Shown piece after piece: positions 14,384 through 56,182 of a stretch of DNA of 64,000 bases; position 1 is the stretch's first letter; every line of letters begins with the position of its first letter. The notes beneath the pieces were generated by a model that saw nothing but the letters and a program-made list of their open reading frames with translations, made no database searches and was not told the origin of the DNA. Source of the DNA: Candidatus Bathyarchaeia archaeon (GTDB lineage Archaea > Thermoproteota > Bathyarchaeia > Bathyarchaeales > Bathycorpusculaceae); the NCBI GenBank assembly GCA_050012255.1, contig JBEKHN010000006.1:1-64000 (forward strand). Direction: 5' to 3'. A program made the position numbers and the translations under genes.

Positions 14384-14974
14384 AACTTGCTGCGAATCCT
14401 CTGGTACGCAAAGGACGCAATGGAGGAATGCAAAAAGTCAGAAAAGAATTGTCTTTCTTGCCTTGAAGGTTTCACCCCAGCTTGCTTGCTGGGAGGATGT
14501 GGAGAGGCGGCCGCACATGCAGGAGTAGCATGTTTTACAGAAAACGGCCTACCGTCCCGGTGAAAAAGTAGTGTGTTCTCGATTGCGTTGAATGGTTGTA
14601 TACACCCCGACAGAAAAAGGGAGGGTTTGGAAGCTTCCAAACTGGAATGATGTCAGCTTGCTGTTTTCTTCTCGATAACGGATTTAGCGATATCTGCGCC
14701 ACGTCTGCCGCTTCGCGCGCGCGAGTGCGTAATCATGGACCTTATGAGGTGTTTGTGAGTAAATACCTCTCTGCCTTTTGAGTGTAGAAAGGCTATGTCT
14801 TTTCATAGGCCGGTTACATTCCGAATGAAGAGAGCAGCAGCTCTTATCATTTTTGCGGCTTGCAGGCCTAGATCTCTATCCGTTTTTTGCTGAGCATGAT
14901 GGTGCCGTTAATCTAAGTTAATAGACCCTAATCTCAAAGAAAAGGCTAGCGTGCGCCCACTCGTGATCCATCTT

Positions 14975-15153
14975 TCAATTTACCTTCGGCCTAATTTTCT
15001 TGGAGGCAAACAACGCTACTGACGATGGCACCATAATAACTACAATCCATGCTATCAAGGTAGGAAATTCGGGGATGACAAATTTAGCGCAAGGATCGCC
15101 TGGGAACTGTTCTACGGGGATATTTTGGCTGGGGAACTTAAAGCTACCTACTA
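14975..15153 (-). pseudogene. C-terminal remnant of a PEF-CTERM-type surface protein
   Basis: VIPEFP + TM helix + basic tail (KKIRPK); frame becomes unrelated at the (GC)4 tract 15154-15161. Confidence 0.6.
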
Positions 15154-15274
15154 GCGCGCGCTCGTATGGGCTCGTTTTCACCGAAGACTTTACAGAACCC
15201 TTATCTGTCATGGCGATTGGCGATAGAAAAATAATCTACGAGCCAAACAAAAATCTATGCAAACGGTTTTTTGC

Positions 15275-15865
15275 CTATGGAATCAACACCCATGTACCTG
15301 CAGTTGAATCATATCGATACCTATTCCAAGCAGCAGACACATCATCAAACTTGAACATGATTTTCTCGAACGCTTCATTGCAACCATAGAATTGTCTCAC
15401 TTCTCTTCGTAGCCAGGCTGGACGATTTGAATACCAACGGTTTAACAAGATATGGGTTAGGTTGTTGAACCCGTCAGACGGATAGCTTGTCCTGAAGTTT
15501 TCAATGACCTCTAGACCTTCAAGATATCCTGGCAGGGCCATTCGGTCTATACTTTCTTCCAGAAGGACTATTATTTGCATATCCTTTATTCCTGCACTTC
15601 CTATCTCTTGATGAACCTTCACCTTATTCTGTGCATTGTATGTGTACAAAACGACGAAAAAATGGCATTGGTTTATGAGCCTCTTGACCTTTTCTTTCCA
15701 TAGAAGCGTACCTGGTTCCTGAAAATATTCGGCAACAAGTGGATTCACGTTATTCCAAGATAGAACTTTCGCGAATATATCTACAATATTCATGTCTTCA
15801 CTAGCATGACTAATAAAGACATTGAAAGGTTGGTCCAACCCAAATTCTGACGTTCTCAGCACCAT
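15275..15865 (-). CDS. TIR domain protein
   Basis: VFISHASED...FFVVLYT...VHQEIG TIR pattern with catalytic-position Glu. Confidence 0.85.
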   Translation of the reverse strand: MVLRTSEFGLDQPFNVFISHASEDMNIVDIFAKVLSWNNVNPLVAEYFQEPGTLLWKEKVKRLINQCHFFVVLYTYNAQNKVKVHQEIGSAGIKDMQIIVLLEESIDRMALPGYLEGLEVIENFRTSYPSDGFNNLTHILLNRWYSNRPAWLRREVRQFYGCNEAFEKIMFKFDDVSAAWNRYRYDSTAGTWVLIP

Positions 15866-16328
15866 TAACTAGTAGGCAGCGTTAGAGATTAACGTTTACT
15901 GACTTACGGAAGCACGCTTTTCCAACCGCGTCAGTTTGTTGATTATTCATCATTGATCTTGCTATTCCCCGAAGTCGTTCCGAGTCGCTGCAACTTCATA
16001 AGACCGCACATGACACTAAAGGGAGGAACACCGTTTGTGAATTACCAAAAATACCTCATCATCCAAGAAAAGCCCCTCTGGTTAATAGACCTCTCAGCAA
16101 AACCCATAAGACCCTAAGGGTTAACAGAACCTAGTCGCCAAACGAGAGTTTACAGGGAGAACAACCAAACAAAGAGTTTACAGAACCTTTTTCTTAATCC
16201 ACCAGTACAAGCACATAGAGTTCAGTTTGGCTGGCGCAAATAGGGCGCGCGCGCCTGCGCACGAATGGTTTAAACCGACGTAAAGCGTAGTTTGCTTAAG
16301 AAGGAAGCCCAAGTAGAGGAGAGCAGTC

Positions 16329-17096
16329 TTGGCGGAACCAAAGCTCGAACTTGATGATTATGTCGATATCGACACGCTCAAGCAAATAGAGGATGATGAA
16401 ACGAAGATTTTGGGATATAATGTAGCCTTTACGAGACTTGACGGTTCGATTATTACACGAGGAAGTGATTATACATCCCGTCGACTCCTCAGTGGAAGCT
16501 GCGCTTTTCTTGCCCGCTTTCCGAACGGCTTTTATGAATGTCAACGTTCGGACGACGAAGCTTGCAAATTTGTCGTCAACAATCGCCGTTCCCTACTGTA
16601 CCGATGTAGAGGAGGTTTCAGTAATTTCGCAATACCAATAGAAATAGATAAGAGAATCATAGCTTGCATGTTCGGCGGGCAGTTTCTTGTTCTTGAGCCT
16701 AAACGCGCAAATCAGAAACAGCATTTCGAAGACTTTTGTCGAGATCACGAAATCCATCTCAGGGAAGGACTTGGCAGAGTTATAAAAGATGGCTTTTTCT
16801 TCAGAGGCGAGCAGATAGACGAGAGTCAAGTGGAAGAGATTGCGAAAACATGCGGTATCGATGTCTCCGAACGAGATGAGTTTGTACGCGTATACAAGAG
16901 AGAGTTCAGTTTACGAAGTGGGAGAGTATTTAATGTCGAAACGTTCATGCGAGATTTCGCGCACCTTGAAGTCATTACGAAGTTATTATCAAGCATCGGT
17001 CAGAAAATTCCCCGCCTAGAAGGAAAAAGCAACTCGGAGTATCGGACACCTCCCAATCATGGAAAGAAAGACGACGGTCCTCTCAAAAGATGGTGA
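16329..17096 (+). CDS. PocR ligand-binding (sensor) domain protein
   Basis: C...ECQRSD...YRCRGGFSNFAIPI...MFGGQF PocR signature. Confidence 0.8.
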   Translation: MAEPKLELDDYVDIDTLKQIEDDETKILGYNVAFTRLDGSIITRGSDYTSRRLLSGSCAFLARFPNGFYECQRSDDEACKFVVNNRRSLLYRCRGGFSNFAIPIEIDKRIIACMFGGQFLVLEPKRANQKQHFEDFCRDHEIHLREGLGRVIKDGFFFRGEQIDESQVEEIAKTCGIDVSERDEFVRVYKREFSLRSGRVFNVETFMRDFAHLEVITKLLSSIGQKIPRLEGKSNSEYRTPPNHGKKDDGPLKRW

Positions 17097-17406
17097 ACGC
17101 AAATTGGACAATGATGATCAAAAACCTCATTATGATACCGTGGCCTCGGCCTTTCTGGGAGTCTCAAGCACAATGATGGCAATCATTGGAAGTTTGTTAC
17201 CATTTCTAAAGATCCAAAAAGCTTTGAGCAACGCGCAGTCTTTTCTTTTTGTTTCAGTGATAGTTTTTCTCATTACGACAATCGTAGCCAGCACATTAAG
17301 CCTAATGGAGCGAAACGATACTCGGTTCAAAAGAGTTCTTTGCAAGATATCCGCGATCCCGTTGATAATTTCCACGGTAATCCTTGTCGTGATAATATTG
17401 ATTTGA
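17059..17406 (+). CDS. Small membrane protein
   Basis: Three hydrophobic segments; start uncertain. Confidence 0.55.
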   Translation: MERKTTVLSKDGERKLDNDDQKPHYDTVASAFLGVSSTMMAIIGSLLPFLKIQKALSNAQSFLFVSVIVFLITTIVASTLSLMERNDTRFKRVLCKISAIPLIISTVILVVIILI

Positions 17407-17411
17407 ACTGG

Positions 17412-17587
17412 TAGCGCGCATGCTTGTTCCGAAATTGGCTAAAAATGGTTTTTATTCTTCTTGTGGGGTTTGGGACACTTTCAGGTATCGTGCATGTCCA
17501 TGCCTTTTATGACAAGCAACTCTTCCCGAAATGCGAGAGCGGAATTAAAACCATTTTTGACCATTTTAGGAACACGCATGCGCGCTA
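17412..17587. mobile_element. 176-bp MITE-like unit with ~46-bp imperfect terminal inverted repeats
   Basis: TAGCGCGCATGCTTGTTCCGAAATTGGCTAAAAATGGTTTTTATTC ... GAATTAAAACCATTTTTGACCATTTTAGGAACACGCATGCGCGCTA. Confidence 0.7.
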
Positions 17588-17675
17588 AGCGTTGGTCATG
17601 AGGTGATACCTTAGATGAGCAGGAAAAAGATATCAGGAGGTATTTTCAACTGAATCAGCAGGGAGGGCGCTATGT

Positions 17676-19229: not shown

Positions 19230-19256
19230 CGGACAACCACTGGTATATCCTGAAAA

Positions 19257-20492
19257 TCATTGCTTTTTCTCCGCATGATACGCGATCAAGGATTTGACAT
19301 AGTTTTCAACTTCATCCCCTAGCTCAGGTGGCAAGGAACGAAGCTGGGTCCTAGGTCTGCAAATCAATCCGTTGTATCGTCGATCCTTTCCATTTCTCCT
19401 GATCCTGCGGGCGCGAGCGCTTTCCCAAAGTTCTTTGAGAGTCTTTTTCTCCGCACCAACAAGAGAACCTATCCTTTCTTCGAACAATCCACCAGGACAT
19501 GGATAGACTTCTCCTCTGACATTAGCGTACAGTGCAAAGTTTCGCTGTCTGCAGACATGTCCGCCTGCAAAAGCTGAGACTCCTTCAAATTTGATTTTGT
19601 TTCTTGGGTTCATATTCCACCAATAAATCCTTTTCCAGAGGTCTATTTTCTCTTTTCTACAAACGTCATAGACTTCGCGTTGTTCATCCCATTTTGTCTT
19701 TCCACAGGGTATGAAGGTGACTACGAGCGGATATATATTGAGCCTTCTGAAATGAGCATACATCCTGAGAATCTCCTCGTAGTTTCTGTATTTTCCTCCC
19801 AAGACAAGAATGTCCGCTCCCAATCTGGTAGGGTTGCTCCTGTTTAGTCCGACCTCTATAAGCCTTTCAATGCAGAGCTTGCTAAACCGTGTAAAGTCAT
19901 ATCGCTCTCCTTCCTTCTGGCTGATGACTATCCGTTTTCCTTTGAAGAAGAACTTGGGCAAGCCGACGATGCGGTTTTGAAGTTCGCCTTTCAGACTGTT
20001 AACCTTGACTATGACCGAGACATCCAGGTCGCCCAAGAGGCTAGCCAAGTCGCTGCCACTCATACCGTAAATTTGATTTGAGAGTCTATCGTCTCCTATT
20101 ACATGCCCTGCTGTGAAAACCAGAGGAATCATTCCTAATCTGTGAACATACCTGAGAACTTTCAGGAACTGCCGATCTTCAAAAGGCTCGCCTTGACCCA
20201 CAAAGTGAATGGACTTACAGCCAAGTGCTTTTGCCTGCTCGATGATCTTCGTTGCCTGCGGTAGACTGATCTTGGGCAGGCCTCGGTCGCGCACGTCTTC
20301 TCTTCTAAAGCAATAGCCACAATTCAGGCTGCACTTGATTCCCCACTCGAAATCAAGCATAAGCATTCTGTCGGTGTTTTCAGCTTTTCTGATCTCTTCT
20401 TCTGAAAACGTCCATCCGCGTATACCATTAATGTATCTTGGTCGGAACGTAGCAACACCCCTTTCGCTTTCAATAGAATTACTTACGTGCAT
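19257..20492 (-). CDS. Radical SAM protein with SPASM/Twitch-like C-terminus
   Basis: CSLNCGYC, GQGEPF, C-terminal C...GEVYPC. Confidence 0.88.
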   Translation of the reverse strand: MHVSNSIESERGVATFRPRYINGIRGWTFSEEEIRKAENTDRMLMLDFEWGIKCSLNCGYCFRREDVRDRGLPKISLPQATKIIEQAKALGCKSIHFVGQGEPFEDRQFLKVLRYVHRLGMIPLVFTAGHVIGDDRLSNQIYGMSGSDLASLLGDLDVSVIVKVNSLKGELQNRIVGLPKFFFKGKRIVISQKEGERYDFTRFSKLCIERLIEVGLNRSNPTRLGADILVLGGKYRNYEEILRMYAHFRRLNIYPLVVTFIPCGKTKWDEQREVYDVCRKEKIDLWKRIYWWNMNPRNKIKFEGVSAFAGGHVCRQRNFALYANVRGEVYPCPGGLFEERIGSLVGAEKKTLKELWESARARRIRRNGKDRRYNGLICRPRTQLRSLPPELGDEVENYVKSLIAYHAEKKQ

Positions 20493-20744
20493 TCTTGATT
20501 CTGGGTTTCAATCTTCCTTCCTTTTTGTTAATGTGATAATGTAATAACTCTTCTTATTTTAGAGTATTGATTTATGACCCACTCACTGCTGTGACACGAT
20601 GATGGCCCACGCTTATTTGAGCGCGCGCGCTACCTGGAAAAGAAGGGTGATCGGAGACCAAAGCCTCGAGCTGGAAGAAGGGCAGCCCGTAGAAAGTAAC
20701 CGAGGAGTTCCGTTGGTCTGTCCATTAGGGTAGCCGAGCAACGG

Positions 20745-20855
20745 AGCCGTATCGGACCGAAGAGACGGACCGTTATGGGACCGTGAGACGGACCGTTACT
20801 GGACCGTGAGAAAACCGATTAGAAAACCGAGGGCTGGTCCATATCGGAAACCGTG
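20745..20855. repeat. Phased ACCG / 23-bp tandem repeat cluster (iteron-like)
   Basis: GAGACGGACCGTTATGGGACCGT / GAGACGGACCGTTACTGGACCGT; ACCG roughly every 11-12 bp. Confidence 0.75.
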
Positions 20856-23695: not shown

Positions 23696-24693
23696 TGCAG
23701 ATGTATGTAAAGCCAATGCTGTGCCAAGAACTTGTAGTCAATGGAATACTTGAAAACAACGGACTTGACGGAGAAAAGGTGACTGCAGCATACAGGAAAG
23801 CCATAGCGGAAGCACTTCGAAAGCTAATGGCAAGAAAGTTCGTCTCCGAGAGGAAAGCTACCTGAATAGCCCTCAGATGGGACGGCACGAGAGTTCTTGT
23901 CATCAACGAAGACGGAACAATAATTCTGCAGAACCGCAACGGAATCATCTACACTATAAGGCTACCCGACATTGTAAAGCCGCTGAAAGCAATTCCTGGC
24001 AGGTGGAAGCTCGATGGCGAAGTAGTCTTCATAAGCCCTAAAACTGGGGAAGAAATGTTCACGCCCTGCCAACGCCGCTGCAGTACCCAGTATCCTGACC
24101 CATATCTTCGAGAGCAGTTTCCCGTCAAATTTGAGGTTTTCGACCTTTTAGAAGCTGGCGGATCCAATGTTGAACGGGAGCCCTACTATAAACGCAAGGA
24201 CAGGTTATACACGCTCTTGACGGTGAATACAGATGGCGACGTTGTAGAGTACGTGCCGTATGACAGCAACCTTCCAGAAGCATGGGAAGAAGCGGTCAAG
24301 CAAGACCGTGAAGGCTTAATCGTGAAACAACTCGAAAGCCCGTACGAAGAGGGCGACAGATCTTTCAACTGGCTCAAGGTAAAAAACTGGAGATTTGAAC
24401 GCTGCAATGTAGTCGGTTTTACAGCTGGCGAAAGAGCCCGCAGCCATTTCTTCGGCAGCCTTGTACTCGAGCAGAACGGCCAGTTTAGAGGATGCGCCGG
24501 CAGCGGGTTCAACGGGTGGGAACTGCGGCGTTTCAAAGACATGTTTTCAGATGCGCCAAGGGTGCCGAAGCCTTACAGTGATGAGCAAGTAGGCGAGCCC
24601 TATACAGCCGTCAAAGTCAACATTCAAGTTCTCGTGAAGTACTATCAAATCACAGAAAACAAAGTGTTTCGGTTCCCGATATTCATAGCCTAA
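23695..24693 (+). CDS. ATP-dependent DNA ligase (325 aa after removal of the 21-nt intron)
   Basis: KPML; motif I ERK[intron]WDGTR; LDGEVV; FEVFDLL; EGLIVK; WLKVK; OB-fold GSG...RFP. Confidence 0.9.
23856..23876 (+). other. Bulge-helix-bulge (BHB) intron, 21 nt, in ligase mRNA
   Basis: GAGG/CCTC 4-bp helix with AAA and AGA 3-nt bulges, inner GCTA/TAGC stem; in-frame TGA at 23863; excision restores AAA TGG. Confidence 0.82.
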
Positions 24694-30952: not shown

Positions 30953-31231
30953 TAGCGCGCTGCCTTGTCCCGAAATTGGTCTAAAATGGTCATAATTCCT
31001 ATTTTCGGGTTTAGGGACAGTTTTGAGGCATATATCTGTTTTTAGTCCTCCTCTGCGCTTTGACGTCCCAGACGGACTAGATGTAGCTTCAACAGCTTAT
31101 GGGAGAACTCTACTTCCATCGAGCTTTGATGGAACCCCGTGATTTGCCATCTTTCAACGCGGTCAAGATTACCCGTCAAACAAGCTCAAATCAAGCTCCA
31201 ATAGACAAAAGAAGAATAAAAACCATTTTTA
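30953..31231. repeat. Second, right-truncated copy of the MITE-like unit
   Basis: Left end TAGCGCGCTGCCTTGTCCCGAAATTGGTCTAAAATGG; 31211-31231 is the exact reverse complement of 17440-17460. Confidence 0.65.
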
Positions 31232-31346
31232 CAGAGAAGATTTGCCGCAAAACGTGAATTAGTTTAATCATTCTAGGACAGAAACAAAAAAAAGACAGAA
31301 ATCTTAAATCTGCATAGCAATGGAACCTTTTTGAGGTGAATAGAAT

Positions 31347-31724
31347 ATGCCTAAGTTTTTCGAAAGAAAAAATACCCCAACTTGTAAAGATTGTGCATAC
31401 GTTGAAGACGTATTCAATTTCTGGGTTCGCAAAAGACCTGATTTAAGGGGAGACCAACTTAGCCAACTTCTCAAGGGAATGCCTTTGACTTTTATTTGTC
31501 GAAGAATAGATAAGCACTTCAATAGCTGGAAAGAGGTTTCTGAAAATCCTAAATGTAACCATTTTCTTAAAGGCTGTCGTTCAATATCAGTCGAAGAGCA
31601 AGAACATTTCCTAGATAGAGACTTGCAACGAAAGAACTATGTAGCATCCATTTTGACTTCAATAATAATTATGACTTTTACAGTTGTCATTGCTTTTGCA
31701 AGCCTTAGAGGAATTCTTTTTTAG
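31347..31724 (+). CDS. Hypothetical protein with Cys motifs and C-terminal TM
   Basis: CKDC...C...C; hydrophobic tail. Confidence 0.6.
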   Translation: MPKFFERKNTPTCKDCAYVEDVFNFWVRKRPDLRGDQLSQLLKGMPLTFICRRIDKHFNSWKEVSENPKCNHFLKGCRSISVEEQEHFLDRDLQRKNYVASILTSIIIMTFTVVIAFASLRGILF

Positions 31725-32485
31725 AAGAAGAGAAAAGCCTAAGCCATACAATAGAAAAGGCTCTAGTCAAGCTGAAAGAGGATGCAGTACGGTAAGCACT
31801 AGCATGACTTCGAAAATGAGGTGTCCTTTAGGTCTTATTTGAAGGCTTGAATAACTCTTGTTGAACACAAGGCAAAGAGAGGCTATGTATATTTACCATC
31901 ATTTTGGTGAATGTTGCTGAGTGTTCAATTAAAACAATGTAACTCTTCGAAAACTACCAGAGGGATGTCACTATTTCGAAATTCCCATCATTTTTCCATA
32001 CGAAAGAAGTGACCTACTTCTGGTCTTTCTCGAAATATTGTGGAAATCATGTTGAACACGTCCAACAATATAACCAAAGAAAAGAGGCGCATAGTAATGG
32101 GCAAATGCGAAAAGAGCCACGAAAAGAGTTTGTTTCTGAATTTGCAGTTTGATTGAGTCAATATAAAATCGGAAGATTTCGGAAAACTTTAATAGGATGT
32201 CCTGACACTACGAATTGAGGGGGGCAAGCAATAAGAGAGCGGGAAAGTGATGTGATGGATAGATTTCAGCCATTCTCGGTGGAAGCCAGCCGAGCCTATT
32301 CATCCTTCACCCCGAGAGATGCATAATCTAATATACGTTGGCTATTTCAACCTTGTGCCCCAAAACTGGTTCTAGTCAAACTGAAGCGCGCGCGCATCGC
32401 GGAGCCTTACACTGGGACCTTCAGCTTAACCCCCCACAGTTCGAGAAAGGCGGACACTCCAAGAAGGCCGAAAGCTGACGCGAGG

Positions 32486-32576
32486 CCTAAAATTGTCCCC
32501 AAATCACAAAAGACGATCGATCGAAAAGACGAATTAAGACCATTTTTAACCATTTTCGGAACGGGCATGCGCGCTA
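32486..32576 (-). repeat. Third copy of the MITE-like terminal repeat (inverted)
   Basis: GAATTAAGACCATTTTTAACCATTTTCGGAACGGGCATGCGCGCTA; supplies the TAG stop of the UvrD gene. Confidence 0.7.
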
Positions 32577-36231: not shown

Positions 36232-37305
36232 ATGGAGCGCACCGTTGCCGTCAGCTACCTGCAAAACATTATGGGAAGTAACAAGGCCATGGGGCTTGTC
36301 GCTCAAGCTGATTTTCAAAAATGGGTACATGAGTGCGGTGGCAATGTCGAAAGAAAGTACTTTAATGGTTGCTGGGTTATGTCTCCGAAGGGTTCAACCG
36401 CAAACAAGAGAATGTGTTTTTTTGTTCATGAGAAAATTGAGACAAAAGAAGCACTTCAATCTGCCGTTGATTCCTTGATTTTGAATAGAGGTTTTCATGG
36501 TCTTTGCGGTTCTATGGTTCGGTCCGGATTCGGTGTTTTCCACTGCTTTGCGATTGGCAACTCCAATACTGGGAACCTCGGGGATCTAGAATGGACATTG
36601 TACAGATATCGAAACGAGAATCTTAGCCAAATAGACGCTCAGCAACTCTTTGCGATCTGGCCAGGAAGAGGAAGAGCAGGCCGCAGGGCTGCATGGGATG
36701 CTCGCGTCATAGACAGGTACCAAGTTCTCGATCTCCACGTCCTCGAATCGCTCGTGTTGAATCAAGTCTTCTTTAATTCATTCGTTAAAGAACTGATGAA
36801 AAAGCCTGTTGCCGATCCCTATGATGTCGATGGCTTTTTTGTTTCATATGAAGGAAAGATCCTGCCGTTGGAGATAAAGGAAAAATTTCCTTTTGAGGCA
36901 AATAGGGTCAAGCTTCTTGGAATTGACGCGGGGAGAATACTCATGCTGATGCGGATATGTCTTCCTTTGGACTGTAATGGTCTCTACATAATTAGGGAAG
37001 TTGAGGATTCTCCGCAGAGACGTTTTGTGGGTTGGAAAATGACGACCCTTGATTCTATAGTCATGAACTCCAACTGGACCCTTCAAGCTGGCGGTACAGG
37101 CATGACAGGTGGTCCAACACAGACCGTGACATTTCCATACGAGTGCTTTTCAGATCTCAATGCACAGACATTTTCTGATGAAAGCCTGCATAGAATCAGC
37201 GAATTTTCGAAGATTATCAAGGAAAAGGCAGCTGCTTTTCAAGACGGGGTTGAGAGATTTATTGAGTCTGCTTCATCTCAATCTCAGCGGAGCCTACCTG
37301 CTTGA
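36232..37305 (+). CDS. Putative PD-(D/E)XK restriction endonuclease
   Basis: PYDVDG...LEIKEK; converges on the C5 methyltransferase. Confidence 0.6.
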   Translation: MERTVAVSYLQNIMGSNKAMGLVAQADFQKWVHECGGNVERKYFNGCWVMSPKGSTANKRMCFFVHEKIETKEALQSAVDSLILNRGFHGLCGSMVRSGFGVFHCFAIGNSNTGNLGDLEWTLYRYRNENLSQIDAQQLFAIWPGRGRAGRRAAWDARVIDRYQVLDLHVLESLVLNQVFFNSFVKELMKKPVADPYDVDGFFVSYEGKILPLEIKEKFPFEANRVKLLGIDAGRILMLMRICLPLDCNGLYIIREVEDSPQRRFVGWKMTTLDSIVMNSNWTLQAGGTGMTGGPTQTVTFPYECFSDLNAQTFSDESLHRISEFSKIIKEKAAAFQDGVERFIESASSQSQRSLPA

Positions 37306-38362
37306 GAATGCTGTCCCCAATTGCTTTGGCAAGAAGCACAGGAACTGCATTACCGACTTGCCTGTACTGGAACTGGAATTTGACATAGTTCAGGGCCATT
37401 ATGGGTCCGCAGAAAACGTAGTCGGTTGGAAAACTCTGAAGCGTTGCGACCTCTCTAACTGTTCCCGTTCTTGGTTCCGAAGGATGCGTCCAGTCATCTC
37501 GACAATGTCCGGTTATGCATCTCGACGGTTTGTCCAAGTCGTCTCTAAACCTCCAGTTCTTCCAAGCAGAGCCCGGAGCTAAACTTGCCAGTTTCTTCTT
37601 TTTCTTTTCGGTATGTCTTGGCATGTCCTGATTCGGCATGTCTGGCGTCAGCTTCGAGAATGCCTGTCTGATTGTGACATACAGCGGGAGTCCGAGAAGA
37701 TTATGCACTGGAGAATACGTTGGTTCAGGGAACCTCAGAAGGAGCCCATCTCTCGAACCAAGAAGAAACAACCGCTTTCTTATTTGGGGAACACCATAGT
37801 TGGCCGAATTTAGTATTTGGGGATTCACTTTGTAGTCAAGTGAGCTGAAAGCATCCAGCACTCTTTGAAAGACCTCGCCACCCGCTTTGTTCAGCAGTCC
37901 GGGCACATTTTCCATGAGGAAAGCTCTTGGGCGAATCTCTCTTACGAATCGACGGAAGTGAAGGAACAAGTTATCGCGGGGGTCGTCAACTGACCTGCCT
38001 CCTTTAGGGATCTTTGCTATAGTAAAGGATTGACATGGAGGGCCTCCCGCGATTAGATCTATCTGTTCTTTTTCCAATCGTATAGATTTCAGAACTTTCG
38101 ACACGTCTAGTTTCGTGATGTCTCTTCGAAAGACCTTTGCATCTGGAAAGTATTTGGGGGCATTACGTCGCAACGTCTGGCAGCAATATTTGTCGATTTC
38201 CACCAAGGCTGTTGTCGAGAACCCTGCCGCTTCGAGACCTAGAGCTAGCCCCCCAGCACCCGCGAAGAGTTCGATTGATTTGGGCCTTCTCTCCATGATG
38301 ATACAACTGCTCAATTCTTCTTTTATATTTGGTGCCTTCTCATATATGAATCGGTAGGACAC
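37259..38362 (-). CDS. dcm: DNA (cytosine-5)-methyltransferase
   Basis: ELFAGAGG, GGPPCQSF, MENVPG, PQIRKR, QVGNAVP. Confidence 0.95.
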   Translation of the reverse strand: MSYRFIYEKAPNIKEELSSCIIMERRPKSIELFAGAGGLALGLEAAGFSTTALVEIDKYCCQTLRRNAPKYFPDAKVFRRDITKLDVSKVLKSIRLEKEQIDLIAGGPPCQSFTIAKIPKGGRSVDDPRDNLFLHFRRFVREIRPRAFLMENVPGLLNKAGGEVFQRVLDAFSSLDYKVNPQILNSANYGVPQIRKRLFLLGSRDGLLLRFPEPTYSPVHNLLGLPLYVTIRQAFSKLTPDMPNQDMPRHTEKKKKKLASLAPGSAWKNWRFRDDLDKPSRCITGHCRDDWTHPSEPRTGTVREVATLQSFPTDYVFCGPIMALNYVKFQFQYRQVGNAVPVLLAKAIGDSILKQVGSAEIEMKQTQ

Positions 38363-38364
38363 CG

Positions 38365-39024
38365 ATGGAAGCTTCGGTCAAGGCCAAATCTGCCTTTGCA
38401 GCGTTGCTTTTGGAGTGGTACCAGAAGAACGGCCGGTGTTTTCCGTGGAGGAACAAGAAAGATCCTTATCAAATCCTGATAGCTGAAATAATGCTTCAGC
38501 GTACAAGAGCGGGTCAGGTTGTCCCTGTTTATCTGAATTTTCTTCGAGATTTTCCAACCATAAATGCGTTGAAAAAGGCACCGGTTGAGCGGATTGAGCG
38601 ATATTTCGGCAAGTTGGGGCTACGTTGGAGGGCCGGTCGAGTTAAACAAATGGCAGAAGACATCGCTGAAAGGTTCAAATCTGGGATCCCATCTGATCGT
38701 GAGCAACTTCTTTCCATTCCATCGATTGGAGATTACATTGCTGACGCCATGCTGGCATTTGCCTATGGGAAAAACGTTGCAGTGGTCGACTCGAACGTCT
38801 GCAGGGTAATTGGTAGAGTGTTCGGTCTTGACTCGAAAAGGGAAGCAAGAAGGAAACTGCTATTCAGGAATATTCCGAATAGTCTGCTTCCCGCTGGAAA
38901 GGCGAGGGAGTTTAACTGGGCGATGATAGATCTTGCTTCGCTTGTATGTCTGCCAAGAAAACCTCTGTGCTCGAAATGTCCACTCAACAGGGTCTGTGAT
39001 TTCGCTCAAACTCTTAGCTTTTAA
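38365..39024 (+). CDS. HhH-GPD DNA glycosylase, MutY/MIG (T:G mismatch) type
   Basis: FPWR...AEIMLQRT, VDSNVCRV, CLPRKPLCSKCPLNRVC 4Fe-4S; lacks MutY C-terminal domain. Confidence 0.88.
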   Translation: MEASVKAKSAFAALLLEWYQKNGRCFPWRNKKDPYQILIAEIMLQRTRAGQVVPVYLNFLRDFPTINALKKAPVERIERYFGKLGLRWRAGRVKQMAEDIAERFKSGIPSDREQLLSIPSIGDYIADAMLAFAYGKNVAVVDSNVCRVIGRVFGLDSKREARRKLLFRNIPNSLLPAGKAREFNWAMIDLASLVCLPRKPLCSKCPLNRVCDFAQTLSF

Positions 39025-40801: not shown

Positions 40802-41029
40802 ATGGAGAAGAAAATGCCATTTGAGAGCCTATCGCACAGACACACAGTCTCTATTGGAGACTTCCCCTCACAATGGCTTCCGTTTATCCATCTTTATGAC
40901 GCGGATCTCATCATGTTTCCACTTCAGTATTTTCATATCCTCTCTCCTGATCTCAAGGCGGGGCAGTCACCGGGAACGGATGACAGGGTCTTTGGCTACA
41001 TAGAGAGAACACGCTTTGTGGATTCACGA
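40802..41029 (+). pseudogene. Gene fragment ending at a (GC)5 tract
   Basis: ORF runs into GCGCGCGCGC (41030-39) and then into a repeat shared with 61420-61440. Confidence 0.45.
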
Positions 41030-41136
41030 GCGCGCGCGCTAACTTTTCCGCAAAACCAAATATGCCGAAGGCATTATGTCGAAAGTGCAGAACAGAAAAA
41101 CAAGTTCTTAATACCGAGTTGAATGCCTATTAAAGC

Positions 41137-41598
41137 TTAGAATTTTTTTCGGAAGCCGTTTGAGAGTTTGGGTCTTCCAGCTAAGTATCGATACAAGAGA
41201 TAAGTTTCCAATTTTGGGTCTTTGGACTCTGCGTTTATCATGTGAAGTAGCAGAAATAGTGCTGTATTTGGACTTTCGTTAGAGATAACGGCGAGAGTGC
41301 CGTCAATTATTATTCCTTTTTTTGTCAAGTCTGTATTAAAGAGAAGGTCGGTGTTCAGCATTGCCTCTCTTATTTTGTGGATTTCTTCATAATTTTGCGC
41401 TTTAGCTACTCGGATTATTTCAGACCTGATGTTATTCCAATTTTGCTTACTGACTATGGCAAACGCTGTTTTCCTATCTGAGGGGTATTGAGTATCAATC
41501 GCCTCCTTCACCCAGCTGACTACCTCTTCTGCTGAATGTTTCTCGAGGTTTTGAAGAGCTTTTATTTTCGTTTTCGCTTCTAAGTACATATCAGTCAT
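41137..41598 (-). CDS. Hypothetical protein
   Basis: 153-aa ORF. Confidence 0.6.
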   Translation of the reverse strand: MTDMYLEAKTKIKALQNLEKHSAEEVVSWVKEAIDTQYPSDRKTAFAIVSKQNWNNIRSEIIRVAKAQNYEEIHKIREAMLNTDLLFNTDLTKKGIIIDGTLAVISNESPNTALFLLLHMINAESKDPKLETYLLYRYLAGRPKLSNGFRKKF

Positions 41599-41797
41599 TT
41601 TGTCTTCCCAGCTATTTAGTATTGCAAGCGTTTAAGCGTTGTTTTTGTCAGCCATAAGGGTATAACGGAAGCGCGAGCACTTAGCCATCACCGAAAGTTG
41701 ACATGGAGAAGGTTTCACCGAAGACTTGACAGCTCCCGAGTCTAACAAAGACAGAAATCTTAAAACAGCATAGCAACAGAGGACAAGTGCAGAGATT

Positions 41798-42175
41798 ATG
41801 GAAATAACAGAAAAAGAAAGACTAATGCTCACTAAGAAAAAAGAGCTAATATGTGGATTAACGCTGAAAGTTTTGGATATGGCACATGACCCAGAATGTT
41901 CCTTAGAAATTAAGAAGACTGTGACAACTATATTATCAGAACTAAATACAATAGCATCTTATTCAAATTCCAAAAATCACGGTTTAGATAGATTTGAAGA
42001 CGGTGCCAATATAATTTTCAAACACTTTGACCTTAAAGAGTACGTTCTTGCCGAGTGTATGTGTGAAGTTTTCTGCAATGCGGTGAATTCCGTAAGATTC
42101 GATTTTACGAAGAAAGGGTTAAAGATACGCTTCCCTAAGATAAATCTCAATCTGGGTTTCATCACCAACAAGTAA
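41798..42175 (+). CDS. Hypothetical protein
   Basis: 125-aa ORF with flanks shared with 31347-31724. Confidence 0.6.
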   Translation: MEITEKERLMLTKKKELICGLTLKVLDMAHDPECSLEIKKTVTTILSELNTIASYSNSKNHGLDRFEDGANIIFKHFDLKEYVLAECMCEVFCNAVNSVRFDFTKKGLKIRFPKINLNLGFITNK

Positions 42176-42328
42176 CAAAAGGCTCTAGTCAAGCTGAAAG
42201 AGGGTTAATAGAAATCTTTAATCTGCACAACACCATAAGACAAACTAGAGGTTCAAAAATGACTCCACAAGTTCCGTCACCGTCAAAACGCTAAGGAGAA
42301 AGCCGATGCTAGAAGTCTGCGCGCGCGC

Positions 42329-42623
42329 TCATTATTTGAACTGAATCAGACGTTCTTTTCTGTGTTTGTTCATTATGCGAATTTGACCCTTCTTGACTCT
42401 TTGCATAACTTTCCATTATTCTCAATACGACTACTCCGAATGAATCTGGCTTCAATAAACTCCCAACGCCGAACACACCCAAAGCACCCGTAAAAACCGA
42501 AAGTGTGAGACTGGATATATTCCAACCATAATTGATTGCTAGGTAGCCCGCAAAAATCCCAAGTAAGATAGAACCCAGTAGGCAGATTGCTCCCCCAGCA
42601 TACACTTCTTCTCTTTTCTTGTA
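42329..42623 (-). pseudogene. Internal membrane-protein fragment bounded by (GC)n tracts on both sides
   Basis: Two TM helices, no own start or stop; tracts at 42319-28 and 42624-35. Confidence 0.6.
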
Positions 42624-42748
42624 GCGCGCGCGCGCTGACGTGTAGAATATCCTTAGTGTAGTGGTATTCCATTGTGGCCTTCCAATGTCGGAGGGTGTGG
42701 AAGAACATAAAAAAAGGGGAAACTCCGTATAAATTCGCGCTTGAGCGT

Positions 42749-42824
42749 TGGTAGCCCGGGAGAGATTCGAACTCTCGTCAGCGGCTCCAGAGGCCGCCAT
42801 GTTTGACCACTGCACCACCGGGCT
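42749..42824 (-). tRNA. tRNA-Gln(CTG)
   Basis: AGCCCGG...GCGGC CT CTG GA GCCGC...GTTCGAATC...CCGGGCT ACCA; 76 nt, encoded CCA. Confidence 0.95.
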
Positions 42825-50047: not shown

Positions 50048-50465
50048 TCCTGTGGCGAAAGAGTTTGAAAGTGGAAATGCTGGGAAAGTGTACGCGGTTC
50101 GAAGCCCAATCTGGCTTTGATGAGGAGTTGGGAAAGTGACTGGAAAGACGACCACTTTGCCTTGCGGATGCAAGTATCAAGACGACGGATACATGGTTGT
50201 TCGTGTCCATGAATGCGCTTACCACATGCAGAGACGAACAAGAAAGCGACCGTACCGGCCTAAGGCTGAGTGCGTAAGGCCCTAAACGCTCGCCAAAACA
50301 AGTCTTTACCCAAACTGGTGAAGCCAAATCTATGGCAAATCTGATTTCAGTGTCGAGCGCGCCGATAGCTGGCTATGGCAACAAAGTCTTGGATAAAATC
50401 AGAAGAAAGTGGAAGTTATTGTTGCAAGCGGTTGATTTCCAAGCTTTACGGAGTGCCTGAACGAG

Positions 50466-51122: not shown

Positions 51123-51361
51123 CCAAGACCCATAACGTGCTTGTCTTGCACGCGCGCTGTTCTGGAGCTTCCTTCGTTGCTTATTCCGCCCCCGTCTATG
51201 ATAGTGACGTTGTTGGCAGTGGTGGTCCGCAGAAGAAAACGCATGTTCTAGTACCCTCTGCATAAGAGAAACTTGAAGCACCAGACTCCTGACATAGAAA
51301 GTGCCTCTGCATGACTTTGGCACAGAATGTCTTAAGAATGATCCCCCTGCTTGATATGTGC

Positions 51362-51994
51362 ATGACAAAGCTGTATTTTCTCGGCGGGGAAGATGTGGCA
51401 GAAAGAGACTCTAGAGAAATCAATGAAAAAGCGTTTATGGAAGCTGGTGGGACACCTGTTGTTCTGATTTTCAATTGGACAGCAGAATCGGCTGACAAAA
51501 TGGGAAAATACGGGAAGATAATGGTTGATTACTTTGAAGACATTGGTGCAAGCGCTGTCGAATTTGCAGAACGTTCAGATTCGTCGGAAGAAATTGCTCA
51601 GAAGGCTAAGCGTTCAGATTTGATATACCTGCCCGGCGGAGTCACGAGAATTCTGCTTGAACGTATACTAGATGCAAAAGTCGACAGCTTGTTGCGAGAA
51701 TACGACAAAATCATCGTTGGAAACAGTGCAGGTGCCCTAGCGCTTGGCAGAGACTGCATACTCACCAGAGGTAAACTCAACAAGAGAACCGTGATAATTC
51801 CAGGCCTCGGTCTGGTGGACTTCAGTGTTAAAGTTCACTACAAAGCTTCAAGGGACCGCGAATTGAAACAGCTTTCATACGCAAGAACAATATACGCCAT
51901 CCCCGAGCGCTGTGCACTCATTTATGACGGCGGCTCTGTATCCGGCATTGGGGACATCTACCTGTTTCAAAACGGAGAGAAGACCAAGCAGTGA
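51362..51994 (+). CDS. Peptidase S51 (dipeptidase E/cyanophycinase-like)
   Basis: IYLPGG, GNSAGA, GLGLV, VHY. Confidence 0.88.
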   Translation: MTKLYFLGGEDVAERDSREINEKAFMEAGGTPVVLIFNWTAESADKMGKYGKIMVDYFEDIGASAVEFAERSDSSEEIAQKAKRSDLIYLPGGVTRILLERILDAKVDSLLREYDKIIVGNSAGALALGRDCILTRGKLNKRTVIIPGLGLVDFSVKVHYKASRDRELKQLSYARTIYAIPERCALIYDGGSVSGIGDIYLFQNGEKTKQ

Positions 51995-52125
51995 ATGGAA
52001 ACATTTGCTCAGAGTCTAAGCTTCTCTGAACTTGTTGAAGCCTATTATTTCTTTGATGGTCTTCCTTTTTCTGGTCGTCAGGCAACGGCGAAAATCCTCC
52101 TTCTTGCTGCTGGATGCAGTACCGC

Positions 52126-53091
52126 TCAGAGCAAAAACTTGCTTACCAACAACACGATAGAGATTATGCTGTAAGTCTGTGTGATCATCATTATCCACTG
52201 AGGATTGTGTGCAGACAGACGCACGATGTTTGCCTCAGTGCTACTGCTCTTCGATACCATGAATTCTTTGGAAAGCGAGTAGAGCTTCCTGAACTCTGTC
52301 AACACAACAGATCCGGCAACTGGTATAGCAACTAAGAGAACAGCCAAGAATAAGTGTTGAGCGTAAGCGAATTGCAGAAGGAATGCAAGCGCAGTGAGCG
52401 CTGCTCCTGCAGTTAGAAGTGCCATGGCGATCAGTGATGCTTTAACGAGACCCACGTGCACCGTCAATGTTTCGATGCCCATTGCTTTGTCTCCGAAGTA
52501 GTCTCGGATTTCAGTCGGTACGATCACGCCGTACACTGTCAGAGCGAGCCCTGTGAGCGACATGAGAAAGAAGGGGTTCATTTCCGTTGTGAAGGTGTAG
52601 TAGGCGAATAGCACCGGGAAAAAGGCGAGTACGAGAATTAACGAGATCGGAGCTAGCCAATTTCTGGATTTCAGTCTTATTGGCGGAAGAGAGTAGGCAC
52701 AGCCCAGACAGATTCCGACTATCCACAGAAGTAGCAAAACAGGCTTCTGCAGAATCAGCATGAACAGAAAGACCAGAATCAGCGTAAGAGCAAATTCGAT
52801 GATAAGCGCCTTTTTCAGTCTGTCTGCTCCAAAAAAATTCATTGCTTCCACAAGCTGTTTCTTGCGCTCATCCTTTGAATCTAATTCACGGTCCGAGAGA
52901 GTGTTGGCTTGTGCACCAATAGCAGAGCTTAGATTGATTATTGCAAAGGACAAAACTATCATAACCACCAAGCCACTAACACTTGTAGACAGTGTTGCTC
53001 CCCAAGCAAGTCCCATAATGAGCGAACCCAAATTCGGCAGCAGAAACTCTGCTCTGGAAACAGTACCGAACAATCGTACGGTTTCGAACAT
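52126..53091 (-). CDS. UbiA prenyltransferase family
   Basis: NTLSDRELD, YSLPPIRLK, EIRDYFGDKAMG; ATG 53091 preferred. Confidence 0.88.
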   Translation of the reverse strand: MFETVRLFGTVSRAEFLLPNLGSLIMGLAWGATLSTSVSGLVVMIVLSFAIINLSSAIGAQANTLSDRELDSKDERKKQLVEAMNFFGADRLKKALIIEFALTLILVFLFMLILQKPVLLLLWIVGICLGCAYSLPPIRLKSRNWLAPISLILVLAFFPVLFAYYTFTTEMNPFFLMSLTGLALTVYGVIVPTEIRDYFGDKAMGIETLTVHVGLVKASLIAMALLTAGAALTALAFLLQFAYAQHLFLAVLLVAIPVAGSVVLTEFRKLYSLSKEFMVSKSSSTEANIVRLSAHNPQWIMMITQTYSIISIVLLVSKFLL

Positions 53092-53308
53092 GGCATTGCC
53101 AAGAGGGCTATAAGATCTAGGAGAATAAAAAGCGCATGCTAAAAGTAACACTATTTGTAATGGTAAAAGGTAATTAGGTGAACCTTCTGGCCGAACTCGC
53201 GTACGCATTAGGTTCGAAATTTCGAAGTTTTGTGGAAGGCAGAGTTTCTTGAGAAGTGAATGCGAAATCGTTAAAACCCCGTGTTACAAATTCAACTGAG
53301 GGGTTCTT

Positions 53309-54541
53309 ATGATTAACAATCGAAGGTACCTGTTCACTTCGGAGTCTGTGGCAGAAGGTCATCCAGACAAGGTCGCCGACCAGATATCAGATGCTGTCCT
53401 TGATGCTGTCTTAAGCAAGGATCCTAAAGCAAGAGTTGACTGTGAAACACTGGTGATGCAAGGAAACGTGATAGTCACTGGTCAGATCACGACGTCTTGC
53501 TACGTGGACATTCCCTGCATTACTAGAAAAACTCTGAAGGAAATAGGCTTGGATAACGCCAAAGATGGAATGGACTGGGAGACCTGTGGCGTGTTGGTTT
53601 CGATAACCGAGCAGTCCCCAGATATTGCCATGGGAGTCAACGAGTCCGAGGCTCATGAACAGGGAGCTGGAGACCAAGGAATGGTGTTCGGCTATGCCAC
53701 AAACGAGACGAAGGAATTGATGCCTTTGCCGATCATGTTTGCGCACAACCTTGTGAGACGACTTTCCGAGTGCAGAAAGAACAGAATTTTGCCATACCTG
53801 AGGCCAGATGGCAAGTCACAAGTCACGGTTGAGTATGCTGGTGGAAAACCAAAAAGAGTGGAGGCCGTTGTGATAGCTGCTCAACACGTTGAGAGCGTTA
53901 ACAGAGAGAAGATGAAGGAAGACGTGATAAATCAAGTCATAAGAAAGGTCATACCTTCCGGCATGTTGGACAAGGAAACAAAATACTACGTTAATGAGAC
54001 TGGAAGGTTCGTTGTCGGAGGAACTCTAGCAGATTCAGGTTTAACCGGAAGAAAAATAATAGTCGACACCTACGGAGGCGTCGGCAGCCACGGTGGAGGA
54101 TGCTTTTCAGGAAAAGACCCATCAAAAGTCGATAGATCTGGCTGTTACATGGCAAGGTACATTGCAAAAAACGTCGTAGCAGCAGGTCTGGCAGACCAGT
54201 GCGAGGTCCAGATATCTTATGCAATTGGCCTCGCACAGCCAGTTTCTGTGATGGTAAACACGTTTGGCACAGGAAAGATACCTGACGAAAGAATTCTCGA
54301 ATTAGTGCGAACACATTTCGACTTAAGACCCAAAGCAATAATAAATCATCTGAATTTGCTCAGACCAATATACAGAAAAACGGCTGTGTTTGGGCACTTT
54401 GGCAGAGACGACCCAGACTTCACATGGGAAAAAACCGACAAAGCAGAGATTCTCAAGAAGCACGCCAGATTACCACGACCAGCTCAGAACTGTAGTAAGA
54501 GACAGGAACCAAGGCGTGGTTTTCATGAATCTTCAGGATAG
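53309..54541 (+). CDS. metK: S-adenosylmethionine synthetase, bacterial/eukaryotic type
   Basis: [49 protein letters not shown]. Confidence 0.96.
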
Positions 54542-55262
54542 GCTCGTAATTGTCACTGGTGCTTCTTCAGGGATAGGTCTGGCGACAGCTAGACTTCTCG
54601 CTAAACAGGGCGCGAAACTGGCTCTCGTCTCCCGTTCAAAAGGGGAGTTGGAGCAGCTCTCAGATGATCTTCCAGGCTCGTTAGCGGTTCCCGCCGACAT
54701 GACGAGAATCTATGATATCGAGAGCATGATTAGACGGACGATGGAGCACTTCGGGAGAATCGACGTTCTAATGAACTGTGCAGGTCAGGGATATGACGCT
54801 CCAGTTGAGAAGACTAACATTGACACTTTCCATCACATCTTCGACTTGGACGTGGTGGGCCCGGTTGTCGCGATGGAGCTGGTGATTCCTATCATGAGGA
54901 ACCAGGGCGGAGGAACGATTGTCAACGTTAGCTCTGGCACTGCCCTGATGTATTTGCCGTACAACGGTGCATATTCGGCCTTAAAACGCGCGCTTGCTAA
55001 TATCAGTTTGACTGCAAGGGAGGAGTTGAAGAAGGACAACATTGTTGTCAGTGTCGTGTACCCGTACATGACGCTCACGAATTTCGAGAAGAACACGATT
55101 AAAGATGCTGTTCCCGAGGGAGGGGAGCAGGATGGTGGCCCTCCTTTTCCAGCTGACACGGCAGAGTATGTGGCTCAGAAGATACTGGAAGGAATAGAAA
55201 GCGGAGAAGCAGAAATCTTCGCCCACGATTGGATGAAGAAAAGAGCCGACGCAAACCCCTAA
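54525..55262 (+). CDS. Short-chain dehydrogenase/reductase
   Basis: [17 protein letters not shown]. Confidence 0.92.
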
Positions 55263-55425
55263 CCTCGCTACTTCGACGCTTTTAGATATTCTGAGAAACC
55301 CCTGCTAGTGGATCAATTTGAACAAGCGTTAATCAGTAAGATGCTGCAGCTTCAGCGCAGGCTAGACTTATATGCGAAAATTCATCTAGAGGAAAATCAC
55401 AGGCGCAAGTGGTTCAAGTTGGGAG

Positions 55426-56154
55426 ATGATGGTTATGGCTGATGTCTTGAAAATCATTCAGCAGAGACGGTCAATCAGGGTTCCTTTTAATCCGAATCGT
55501 CCAGTTTCCAAGGAGAACCTGAGGCAGATCCTCGAGGCGACGCGTTGGGCGCCGACGGCTCACAACATGCAGAACTTCGAAATTCTTGTCGTTGATGACA
55601 AGGAGGTTCTGGAGGAGATTGGAAAAATCAAATCCCGTGTGTCGGAAGCGTTCATCCGTGAGAACTACCAGCAGCTGTCATTCTCGGAAGAGGAGTTGCT
55701 TCAGAAGAAGGTCGGAATCCTCGGCACCAATTTTCCGCCGGATTGGAGGGATCCTGACAAGCTGGACAAGGCTGTTCGTGAGAGCACGCCTTCGCCCCTG
55801 AACCAACGCATCAGAGGTAGTCCGCTGCTGCTGATAGTGATTTATGATTCTAGGAAGAAAGCGCCTGCTTCCGAGGGGGATGTTTTGGGTTTCATTAGCC
55901 TGGGCTGTGTGATGGAGAACATGTGGCTTATGGCCCAGTCGCTTGGGATAAGCGTTCACATATTGAGTGTGTTCAGCGGAGATGCCGTGGAAAAAGAGGT
56001 GAAGCGAATTCTCAACATCCCTGAAAACATGAAGGTTGCTTTTGCCATCCGTCTGGGATACCCCGTCTCCAGGCCGGCTAAACACCTGAGAGTGCGCCGT
56101 GACATGGAAATGCTCACGCATCATAATGGGTTTGGGAACAAGGGCTTCAGTTGA
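55426..56154 (+). CDS. Nitroreductase family protein
   Basis: RRSIR, WAPTAHNMQ, ENMWLMAQSLG, RLGYP. Confidence 0.92.
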   Translation: MMVMADVLKIIQQRRSIRVPFNPNRPVSKENLRQILEATRWAPTAHNMQNFEILVVDDKEVLEEIGKIKSRVSEAFIRENYQQLSFSEEELLQKKVGILGTNFPPDWRDPDKLDKAVRESTPSPLNQRIRGSPLLLIVIYDSRKKAPASEGDVLGFISLGCVMENMWLMAQSLGISVHILSVFSGDAVEKEVKRILNIPENMKVAFAIRLGYPVSRPAKHLRVRRDMEMLTHHNGFGNKGFS

Positions 56155-56182
56155 GAAAACCTTGTCTTGTTTTCGCGCGCGC

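Follow-up and report, generated by a model that had tools for sequence, protein, structure and literature searches.

Short alternating G/C tracts at rearrangement junctions in a Bathyarchaeia genome

Repetitive extragenic palindromes (REPs) are imperfect palindromes of 20–40 nt that are mobilised by RAYT transposases. Known additions at non-homologous end joining (NHEJ) junctions comprise one to a few nucleotides and follow no fixed palindrome. Capture of foreign DNA by bacterial NHEJ has been described (PMC6379672, partial text), and the sites of the cyanobacterial palindrome HIP1 (GCGATCGC) are conserved both inside open reading frames (ORFs) and between them beyond the neutral expectation, according to the available part of PMC5861425. 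Here, we describe tracts of strictly alternating G and C in a 64,000-nt stretch of DNA (the window) from Candidatus Bathyarchaeia archaeon (GenBank assembly GCA_050012255.1, contig JBEKHN010000006.1, positions 1 to 64,000) and in the genome to which it belongs. An earlier note on the window had taken such tracts for scars at module junctions and gene truncation points. Literature searches on the motif, archaeal deletion-junction filler, Bathyarchaeia insertion sequences, and prokaryotic excision footprints returned nothing describing such tracts, and no report of prokaryotic excision footprints on such a scale. A term search of the available part of PMC4390886 gave no hit for the GCGCGC motif.

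The window makes up the opening 64 kb of contig C6 in the assembly, here called G000 (2.35 Mb, 38 contigs), in which an archaeal 16S rRNA gene was not found. A tract was defined as a maximal alternating G/C run of at least 8 nt. The main whole-genome comparator was the congener G001 (single contig, 2,346,764 bp, about 93% identical to G000), and a third genome, G007 (about 92% identity, compared with 93–94% for G001), was used for selected sites. The class-wide sample held 201 Bathyarchaeia genomes, and a genome was called enriched when it showed at least 10 copies of AGCGCGCGCT and at least five times the reversed control. Plain coordinates refer to the window, and those with a C prefix to contigs of G000.

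Tracts at breaks and their neutral decay

G000 contained 393 tracts, of which 201, 123, and 63 were 8, 9, and 10 nt long; runs of 11, 12, 14, and 16 nt numbered 2, 2, 1, and 1, giving a sharp cut-off at 10 nt. The Markov count that the earlier note had proposed showed a strong over-representation of GCGCGCGC, with 434 copies vs. 25–31 expected (orders 1–3). A similar hump was absent for every other alternating dinucleotide. Among the runs composed of G and C only, the strictly alternating words alone were enriched, and the variants with one transition mismatch, about 2-fold enriched, are the decay halo of the tracts. The canonical form was (T)A(GC)4-5T(A). The G..C phase prevailed among both 8-mers (176 vs. 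25) and 10-mers (55 vs. 8), A occupied position −1 in 62%, A before and T after the run were seen in about 60%, and no information was detected beyond −2 and +2.

All nine tracts listed for the window were recovered at their exact coordinates, with lengths of 10, 8, 10, 10, 10, 10, 10, 12, and 9 nt. The statement that most are 10 nt long holds in the window (6 of 9), but genome-wide the main length is 8 nt. The window carried nine tracts per 64 kb against 393 per 2.35 Mb in the genome, i.e. one per 7 kb and one per 6 kb; its island is therefore not special, and the supposed specificity was not confirmed. As had been noted, no run of 8 nt or more was present in the window outside 14714–56182. 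The outer stretches, described as host DNA, do lack long runs, but they are themselves mostly unaligned to G001 (26% and 9% aligned).

Tract enrichment is genome-wide, genus-wide, and partly class-wide. All 10 congeners searched were enriched (29–464 GCGCGCGC words), and the A..T-flanked form was enriched in 5 of 5 congeners tested; five other genera of the same family showed 2–14 words each. Across the class, 20 of the 201 genomes, from families f1, f25, f34, f26, f28, and f35, were enriched for AGCGCGCGCT. In one genome from another family of the order (G021), GCGCGCGC was counted 53 times, often as overlapping words within longer (GC)n runs (for example its C8:28423–28436 and C25:70055–70066), and both AGCGCGCGCT and Ku were absent; its runs look like a different, microsatellite-like phenomenon.

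As all genomes compared are metagenome assemblies, an assembly or sequencing artefact at low-complexity sites had to be considered. Reads and independent assemblies gave no sign of misassembly. A 10.2-kb contig that a second assembler produced independently from what is probably the source run reproduced positions 40900–42777 with 0 differences, including three window tracts. In addition, 38 tracts were conserved at orthologous sites between two genomes assembled separately, of which one is a single contig of 2.35 Mb. The length of 8–10 nt is far below assembler word sizes, and we give the artefact practically no weight.

The tracts seldom lay in undisturbed DNA. With flanks of 300 nt, a colinear context of the same length in G001 was found for 35 of 382 tracts, compared with 334 of 800 random intergenic positions (P = 2e-33) and 241 of 400 coding control positions; for 142 tracts, one flank only was located in G001. 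At the ends of alignment blocks against G001, tracts were enriched 13 times, with 13.1% lying within 2 nt of a megablast block end vs. 1.0% and 0.2% in two control sets (P = 4e-18). An unbiased survey with 120-nt probes placed every 120 nt detected 256 indels of at least 50 bp, and 225 were analysed. Of these, 39 (17%) carried a tract no more than 6 nt away from the short-allele junction vs. 0.4–2.4% by chance. The proposed association with module junctions and truncation points was thus confirmed genome-wide and against controls. The break-scar reading is supported: tracts sit where DNA was deleted, replaced, or inserted. Among flanks with any paralogous copy, the copy began exactly at the boundary for 54 of 214 tract flanks and 100 of 308 control flanks; the design was flawed, as the same start is obtained for control flanks that lie in repeats, and the comparison was given no weight.

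In 34 of the 39 tract-junction indels, the long allele had no GC run at either border of the segment. The tract is therefore not a collapsed target duplication. The same count bears on the earlier proposal that CGCG overhangs at GCGCGC sites were filled in and blunt-joined. Self-restriction of the BssHII type (G^CGCGC) followed by rejoining would give 6 nt by cohesive, 8 nt by slipped, and 10 nt by fully filled-in joining, and it predicts exactly the G..C phase and the 10-nt maximum. However, the long-allele breakpoints did not lie at GCGCGC in those 34 cases, the main length was 8 nt, and the A/T flanks are left unexplained. For GCGCGC outside the long tracts, the frequency agreed with expectation, which gives no indication that a restriction system acts on it. 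The fill-in proposal fails on these points, and self-restriction in general is highly improbable.

Flanks aligning within 6 nt of the tract were obtained for 110 sites (54 tracts of G000 and 56 of G001). Here, 38 tracts were conserved, 31 faced a counterpart of the same length, 4 were clean insertions of 6–15 nt, and 37 faced longer sequence. Most of the 31 same-length sites differed by one or two point changes, and a few were clustered replacements of 8–20 nt. Three of the clean insertions (6–8 nt) occurred at sites without GCGC. The longer counterparts measured 0.1–3.3 kb and were mostly single-copy and ORF-rich. Nucleotides that aligned to neither flank at the junctions typically read A(GC)3-5T. 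In 7 of 38 junctions not involving an insertion sequence (IS), the tract and the ancestral flank had at least 3 nt in common (P = 1.6e-4), which points to some use of GC microhomology.

Several events could be polarised. At C4:3100, the long allele of G001 encodes a full DUF6125 domain (aa 64–222) that spans the junction at aa 203, and at C11:34962 a DUF998 domain (aa 24–197) of the long allele spans the junction at aa 163. Because these Pfam domains run across the junctions, both tract alleles are gene-internal deletions. Several further long-allele frames extend 140–475 nt into the conserved flank. At C3:19943, a 15-nt tract insertion was absent from both G001 and G007, so the 15 nt were gained in G000.

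A different pattern was observed inside a UbiA-family gene of the window (ORF 52126–53208, minus strand), where G001 and G007 carry A(GC)4 instead of about 1,013 bp at 52180–53190. Only 6 and 16 codons of the ORF lie outside the variable segment, which contains the entire Pfam domain. Such a site fits a model in which a site-specific or targeted recombination system swaps gene cassettes, with the tract serving as its crossover or landing site and representing the empty state. Many other variable segments likewise enclose whole genes, tracts border short modules (42319/42624) as well as islands beside tRNA or att repeats, and an IS family most likely targets the tracts. On the other hand, the long alleles lack a border GC run in 34 of 39 cases, and we know of no conservative recombination with such a loss. 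The flanks show no conservation beyond A/T, two of the events are deletions within protein domains, short same-length replacements and pure insertions of 6–15 nt also occur, and no recombinase was linked to the trait. Cassette exchange is thus an unlikely explanation of the tracts.

The location of the tracts relative to genes was equally uneven. About three quarters lay outside long ORFs (20–28% within), compared with a coding fraction of 82% in an approximate gene set. Sorted by alignment to G001, ORFs held 1.6 tracts per 100 kb where aligned and 10 where unaligned, and intergenic DNA held 26 and 120, respectively. Tracts could have been equally common in core genes, which would have spoken against scars; in conserved coding DNA they were at about the Markov level, and in non-conserved intergenic DNA their density was 75 times higher. 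Tandem, divergent, and convergent spacers were equal in density, and no fixed distance to starts or stops was observed. A promoter or terminator role was dropped for this lack of a link to spacer type or gene ends.

Divergence was compared per site at 39 strictly same-length sites. The tracts gave 0.061 (20/330) and their flanks 0.069 (216/3,120; 40 nt on each side), and 14 of the 20 tract changes were C>T or G>A. As the tracts diverge like their flanks, they are not conserved as a motif, and their abundance requires continuing production. This requirement extends to congeners just 70–79% identical to G000. Their behaviour is that of neutral scars, not of a motif under selection: rearrangement junctions receive a stereotyped palindrome, which later decays neutrally.

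These values also weigh on a host-selected iterated palindrome of the HIP1 or REP kind, serving methylation, protein binding, or nucleoid structure, for which the link to breaks would be a by-product of variable spacers and IS attraction. The octamer is over-represented at least 15-fold in G000, as HIP1-like palindromes are, and lineage-wide; it is an IS target, as REPs are (PMC1525189, partial text), and the window encodes a C5 cytosine methylase with an adjacent HhH-GPD glycosylase. Against this stand conservation no better than that of the flanks, the chance level in conserved genes, and the absence of bias towards spacer types or gene ends. Moreover, the tracts arise as insertions and deletion filler and not by point substitution, and the methylase lies in strain-specific DNA. 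We consider selection very unlikely.

Origin of the tracts and the IS/MITE family

We favour end-joining filler over transposon footprints as the generating mechanism and put its probability at about 0.4. The palindromic unit (T)A(GC)4-5T(A) would be made anew where the chromosome broke and was rejoined. Both 3' ends would receive a short tail, often A followed by alternating G and C. As (GC)n is self-complementary, any two tailed ends could then pair, at times starting from existing GC microhomology, and the paired ends would be extended or filled to a stable duplex of 8–10 bp and ligated. The resulting neutral scars would be found at gene-internal deletions, short replacements, and truncated mobile elements, and where strain-specific segments begin or end. 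Existing tracts would afterwards serve as preferred insertion sites for IS5/IS1182-like elements, with duplication of the central GCGC. End-joining filler is favoured because it needs one event per scar, fits insertions, replacements, and deletions alike, and is independent of IS elements. Whether it amounts to a new end-joining chemistry, in which self-complementary G/C tails make any ends sticky and leave an A(GC)4-5T barcode at every rearrangement, is a tentative suggestion that we hold with reserve. The responsible enzyme is probably a lineage-specific or horizontally moving function, and the patchy spread of enrichment across Bathyarchaeia families suggests that the polymerase or nuclease involved moves horizontally.

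The earlier note had named a Ku/ligase pathway as one possibility. G000 encodes a complete operon at C10:11503–14557 with a LigD-type primase-polymerase (PrimPol, 287 aa), Ku (306 aa), and a ligase fused to a 3'-phosphoesterase (PE) domain (464 aa), followed by a DUF72 gene. Within the genus, 8 of 11 genomes carried Ku, compared with 0 of 15 neighbours; in the class sample it was present in 55 of 201, a count that may miss some Ku genes through incompleteness of metagenome-assembled genomes (MAGs). Enrichment was found in 5 of the 55 Ku-positive and 15 of the 146 Ku-negative genomes, and the ligase ORF of the window is truncated; the proposed link was not upheld.

A second source of GCGCGC is a superfamily of IS elements and miniature inverted-repeat transposable elements (MITEs) with inverted ends of about 44 nt beginning GCGCGC-NNGC-NTGTNCC-NAAA. 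We found 125 end matches in G000 (41 pairs, mostly MITEs of 160–310 bp) and 96 in G001 (31 pairs). A 1.08-kb copy in each of the two genomes encodes a DUF772 plus DDE_Tnp_1 transposase split into two frames by stops. Its domains (PF05598, 7.6e-11; PF01609, 1.1e-11) are those of IS5/IS1182 transposases; the NCBIfam IS1182 and IS5 models scored below cut-off on the N-terminal ORF alone. Only 21 of the 393 tracts lay within 100 nt of an IS end.

Such elements would offer another route to the tracts, namely excision footprints of cut-and-paste elements with (T)A-GCGCGC ends (IS5/IS1182-like IS, MITEs, or unrecognised relatives). Insertion, sometimes with adjacent deletion, would be followed by excision, and 4–5 terminal nucleotides per donor end would be rejoined to A(GC)4-5T. 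IS5-family elements such as IS903 reportedly cause adjacent deletions. The 125 and 96 end matches with (T)A before GCGCGC agree with this route, as do the A and T included in the scar, and the 10-nt ceiling and the G..C phase fit 5 + 5 nt from two ends. MITE and tract were also allelic at the identical position at 3 of 4 informative polymorphic sites.

The most instructive of the allelic sites was C3:43050. G000 carries a MITE with 6 + 6 GC letters, where G001 reads TA-GCGCGCGC-TA and G007, the more distant genome, shows a decayed tract of 8 nt. These three sequences would most simply be read as insertion of the MITE into a tract that was already there, with duplication of 4 bp; a pair of independent excisions would be the less simple alternative. 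The GCGC duplication is deduced from the 6 + 6 ends and the 8-nt empty site, and GCGCGC could instead belong to the element. GC-run lengths at the IS core and paired ends fit both an element-owned GCGCGC and a central insertion into A(GC)4T. A never-occupied MITE site was encountered once, in a messy alignment. The IS/MITE family most likely inserts into tracts.

The numbers of tracts and elements were also uncoupled. Seven genomes of the genus had 68, 24, 22, 9, 3, 2, and 1 strict IS ends and another four had none, and tract words vs. strict ends reached 359 vs. 2 in G009, 254 vs. 0 in G008, and 128 vs. 0 in G004. No IS-end profile match was obtained at the examined loci of G008 and G009 that hold 9–10 tracts. 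Among the class genomes, 6 of the 20 enriched and 36 of the 181 non-enriched ones had transposase homologues, intact forms of 330–342 aa among them, and family f34 had none. Neutral decay would demand ongoing production of tracts in these element-poor lineages, 3 of the 4 clean insertions lack a TA duplication, the IS copies of G000 and G001 are broken by stops, and each deletion scar would require several events. The suggestion of the earlier note that the tracts are excision footprints of a MITE-like unit is accordingly weakened by the uncoupled counts and by C3:43050, and we regard footprints as somewhat unlikely.

Two larger units between GCGCGC-type inverted ends were seen in G001, one of 1.77 kb enclosing a MEDS/HTH protein (G001:1558993–1560761) and one of 7,987 bp enclosing a permease, an oxidoreductase, and an aminotransferase-like gene (G001:556672–564658). 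They look like composite or cargo-carrying elements. A genome of family f25 (G106) holds 14 intact copies of an IS-transposase homologue (frames of 342–360 aa), 106 copies of AGCGCGCGCT, and Ku.

Several points weigh against end-joining filler. No generating enzyme was found, and the sole candidate pathway, the PrimPol-Ku-ligase/PE operon, fails to track enrichment in the 201 genomes. T is enriched at −2 (TA on 25–32% of sides vs. 5% background), and simple A-tailing leaves this T unexplained. The IS/MITE ends are preceded by the same (T)A before GCGCGC as the tracts, which leaves some probability to an element-derived origin. Firmly polarised events amount to two deletions and one insertion, and at the UbiA site G007, slightly more distant, has the tract like G001, so that DNA may also insert at tracts. 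Finally, every genome is a MAG, the estimated contamination of G000 is 5%, and the whole comparison was made with one congener.

If the tracts are indeed repair or rearrangement scars, they would form a natural barcode of deletions, replacements, and insertions in uncultured archaea that is readable from sequence, and metagenome reads could reveal events that happened very recently. A process that writes a fixed palindrome at junctions would represent new DNA-repair or transposition biochemistry in a phylum without a cultured model. A tract-specific IS family would exemplify a transposase targeted to 8 bp. The tracts also show that a palindrome may be strongly over-represented without being under selection as a motif.

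Tracts and neighbouring features of the window

The leftmost tract, a 10-nt (CG)5 at 14714–14723, lies in DNA unaligned to G001. The (GC)4 tract at 15154–15161 was described earlier as the end of a PEF-CTERM remnant, and it would be a putative truncation point of that gene. It lies within an 86-aa open frame on the minus strand (14975–15235), whose C-terminal part has a PEF motif, a hydrophobic stretch, and a basic tail. The PEF-type tail is therefore present, but the frame continues through the tract, and no NCBIfam model matched it as PEF-CTERM. A (GC)5 tract at 16245–16254 stands between a TIR-domain gene (15275–15865, minus strand) and a PocR-domain gene (16329–17096), and another at 20621–20630 lies downstream of a radical-SAM gene (19257–20492, minus strand).

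Both 4397–5755 and 15275–35339 have a gene content like that of a defence or mobile island and are not common to G001. The genes include a tyrosine integrase, a TIR-domain protein, a UvrD-helicase/PD-(D/E)XK fusion (921 aa), a DUF5131 gene, and radical-SAM genes; the truncated ATP-dependent ligase is located at 24055–24693. At 37259–39024, the C5 cytosine DNA methylase (minus strand) stands back to back with the HhH-GPD base-excision glycosylase in strain-specific DNA, a pairing that recalls gene pairs of a methylase with T:G mismatch repair.

A 172-bp MITE of the IS5/IS1182-like superfamily occupies 17414–17585, with inverted ends of about 44 nt (GCGCGC-ATGC-TTGTTCCGAAATT) and TA..TA flanks. 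A second MITE is disrupted (30955–32574): its left inverted end is at 30955, its right 179-nt part at 32396–32574, and 1.36 kb of other DNA lies between them. The (GC)5 tract at 32386–32395 is the exact truncation point of this MITE, and from its first base on, the sequence to its right matches the interior of a 305-bp MITE and is homologous to the MITE copy C10:82711–82870. A comparable border was observed for the (GC)5 tract at 41030–41039, which adjoins a repeated sequence at 41040–41100 with copies at 61404–61440 and on contig C14; here too, homology to the other copies begins at the first base after the tract. The coincidence of tracts with breaks that had been described for the window was borne out at these two sites. 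Many copies of 41040–41100, of 31755–31781 (identical to 42177–42203), and of 42177–42282 occur in G000 and G001, and in metagenome contigs the summed depth of these repeats rose very high (about 600 at 41034–41100).

The 295-bp fragment 42329–42623 has a tract on each side, as reported before, with (GC)5 at 42319–42328 forming its left border and (GC)6 at 42624–42635 its right border. The latter is one of only two 12-nt runs in the genome and lies 113 nt before a tRNA-Gln gene (CTG; 42749–42824, minus strand). At this point synteny picks up again, the tRNA gene being the start of a block colinear with G001 and G007. Between 50377 and 50482, G001 holds about 35.6 kb (G001:1042926 to 1078526) that are absent from G000, and a GCGCGC 6-mer of G000 lies beside this segment at 50357–50362. 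At the last tract (9 nt, 56174–56182), G001 has 2,035 bp at the same place. The tract adjoins a 43-nt perfect direct repeat at 56184–56226, which together with its second copy at C6:64390–64432 bounds a low-GC (39–41%) stretch of about 8.2 kb. This stretch resembles an integrated element bounded by att repeats, and all congeners searched have conserved copies of the repeat.

Comparison with known systems

HIP1 and the alternate cyanobacterial palindromes share several features with the tracts, being 8-bp GC-rich palindromes that are lineage-specific and more than 15-fold over-represented, according to the available parts of PMC5861425 and PMC4390886. The differences lie in location, conservation, and origin. 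HIP1 is abundant inside genes, as given in the available text of PMC5861425, whereas the tracts are at chance level in conserved genes. HIP1 is conserved beyond the neutral expectation (same partial source), whereas the tracts decay like their flanks. Unlike HIP1, the tracts arise as insertions or deletion filler.

REPs and bacterial interspersed mosaic elements (BIMEs) are intergenic iterated palindromes that are entered by specific IS elements, according to the part of PMC1525189 at hand, and the tracts resemble them in both respects. In size, the tracts (8–12 nt, mainly extragenic, with no further conserved flank) differ from the 20–40-nt imperfect palindromes with a conserved head that make up REPs and REPINs (REP sequences forming hairpins).

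Cut-and-paste footprints of the Tc1/mariner and hAT type, which end joining seals, are likewise short stereotyped insertions flanked by A/T or TA, and like the tracts they are allelic with an inverted-repeat element that has the same tip letters. The tracts differ from them in an abundance that is uncoupled from the element and in showing no regular target duplication. Many tracts lie instead at kilobase deletions and inside domains.

Ku-LigD NHEJ scars differ from the tracts in their dependence on Ku, which does not follow the trait across the 201 genomes. They have in common with the tracts deletions, captured DNA, and small additions at junctions of low homology, and the genes of the operon are present in G000.

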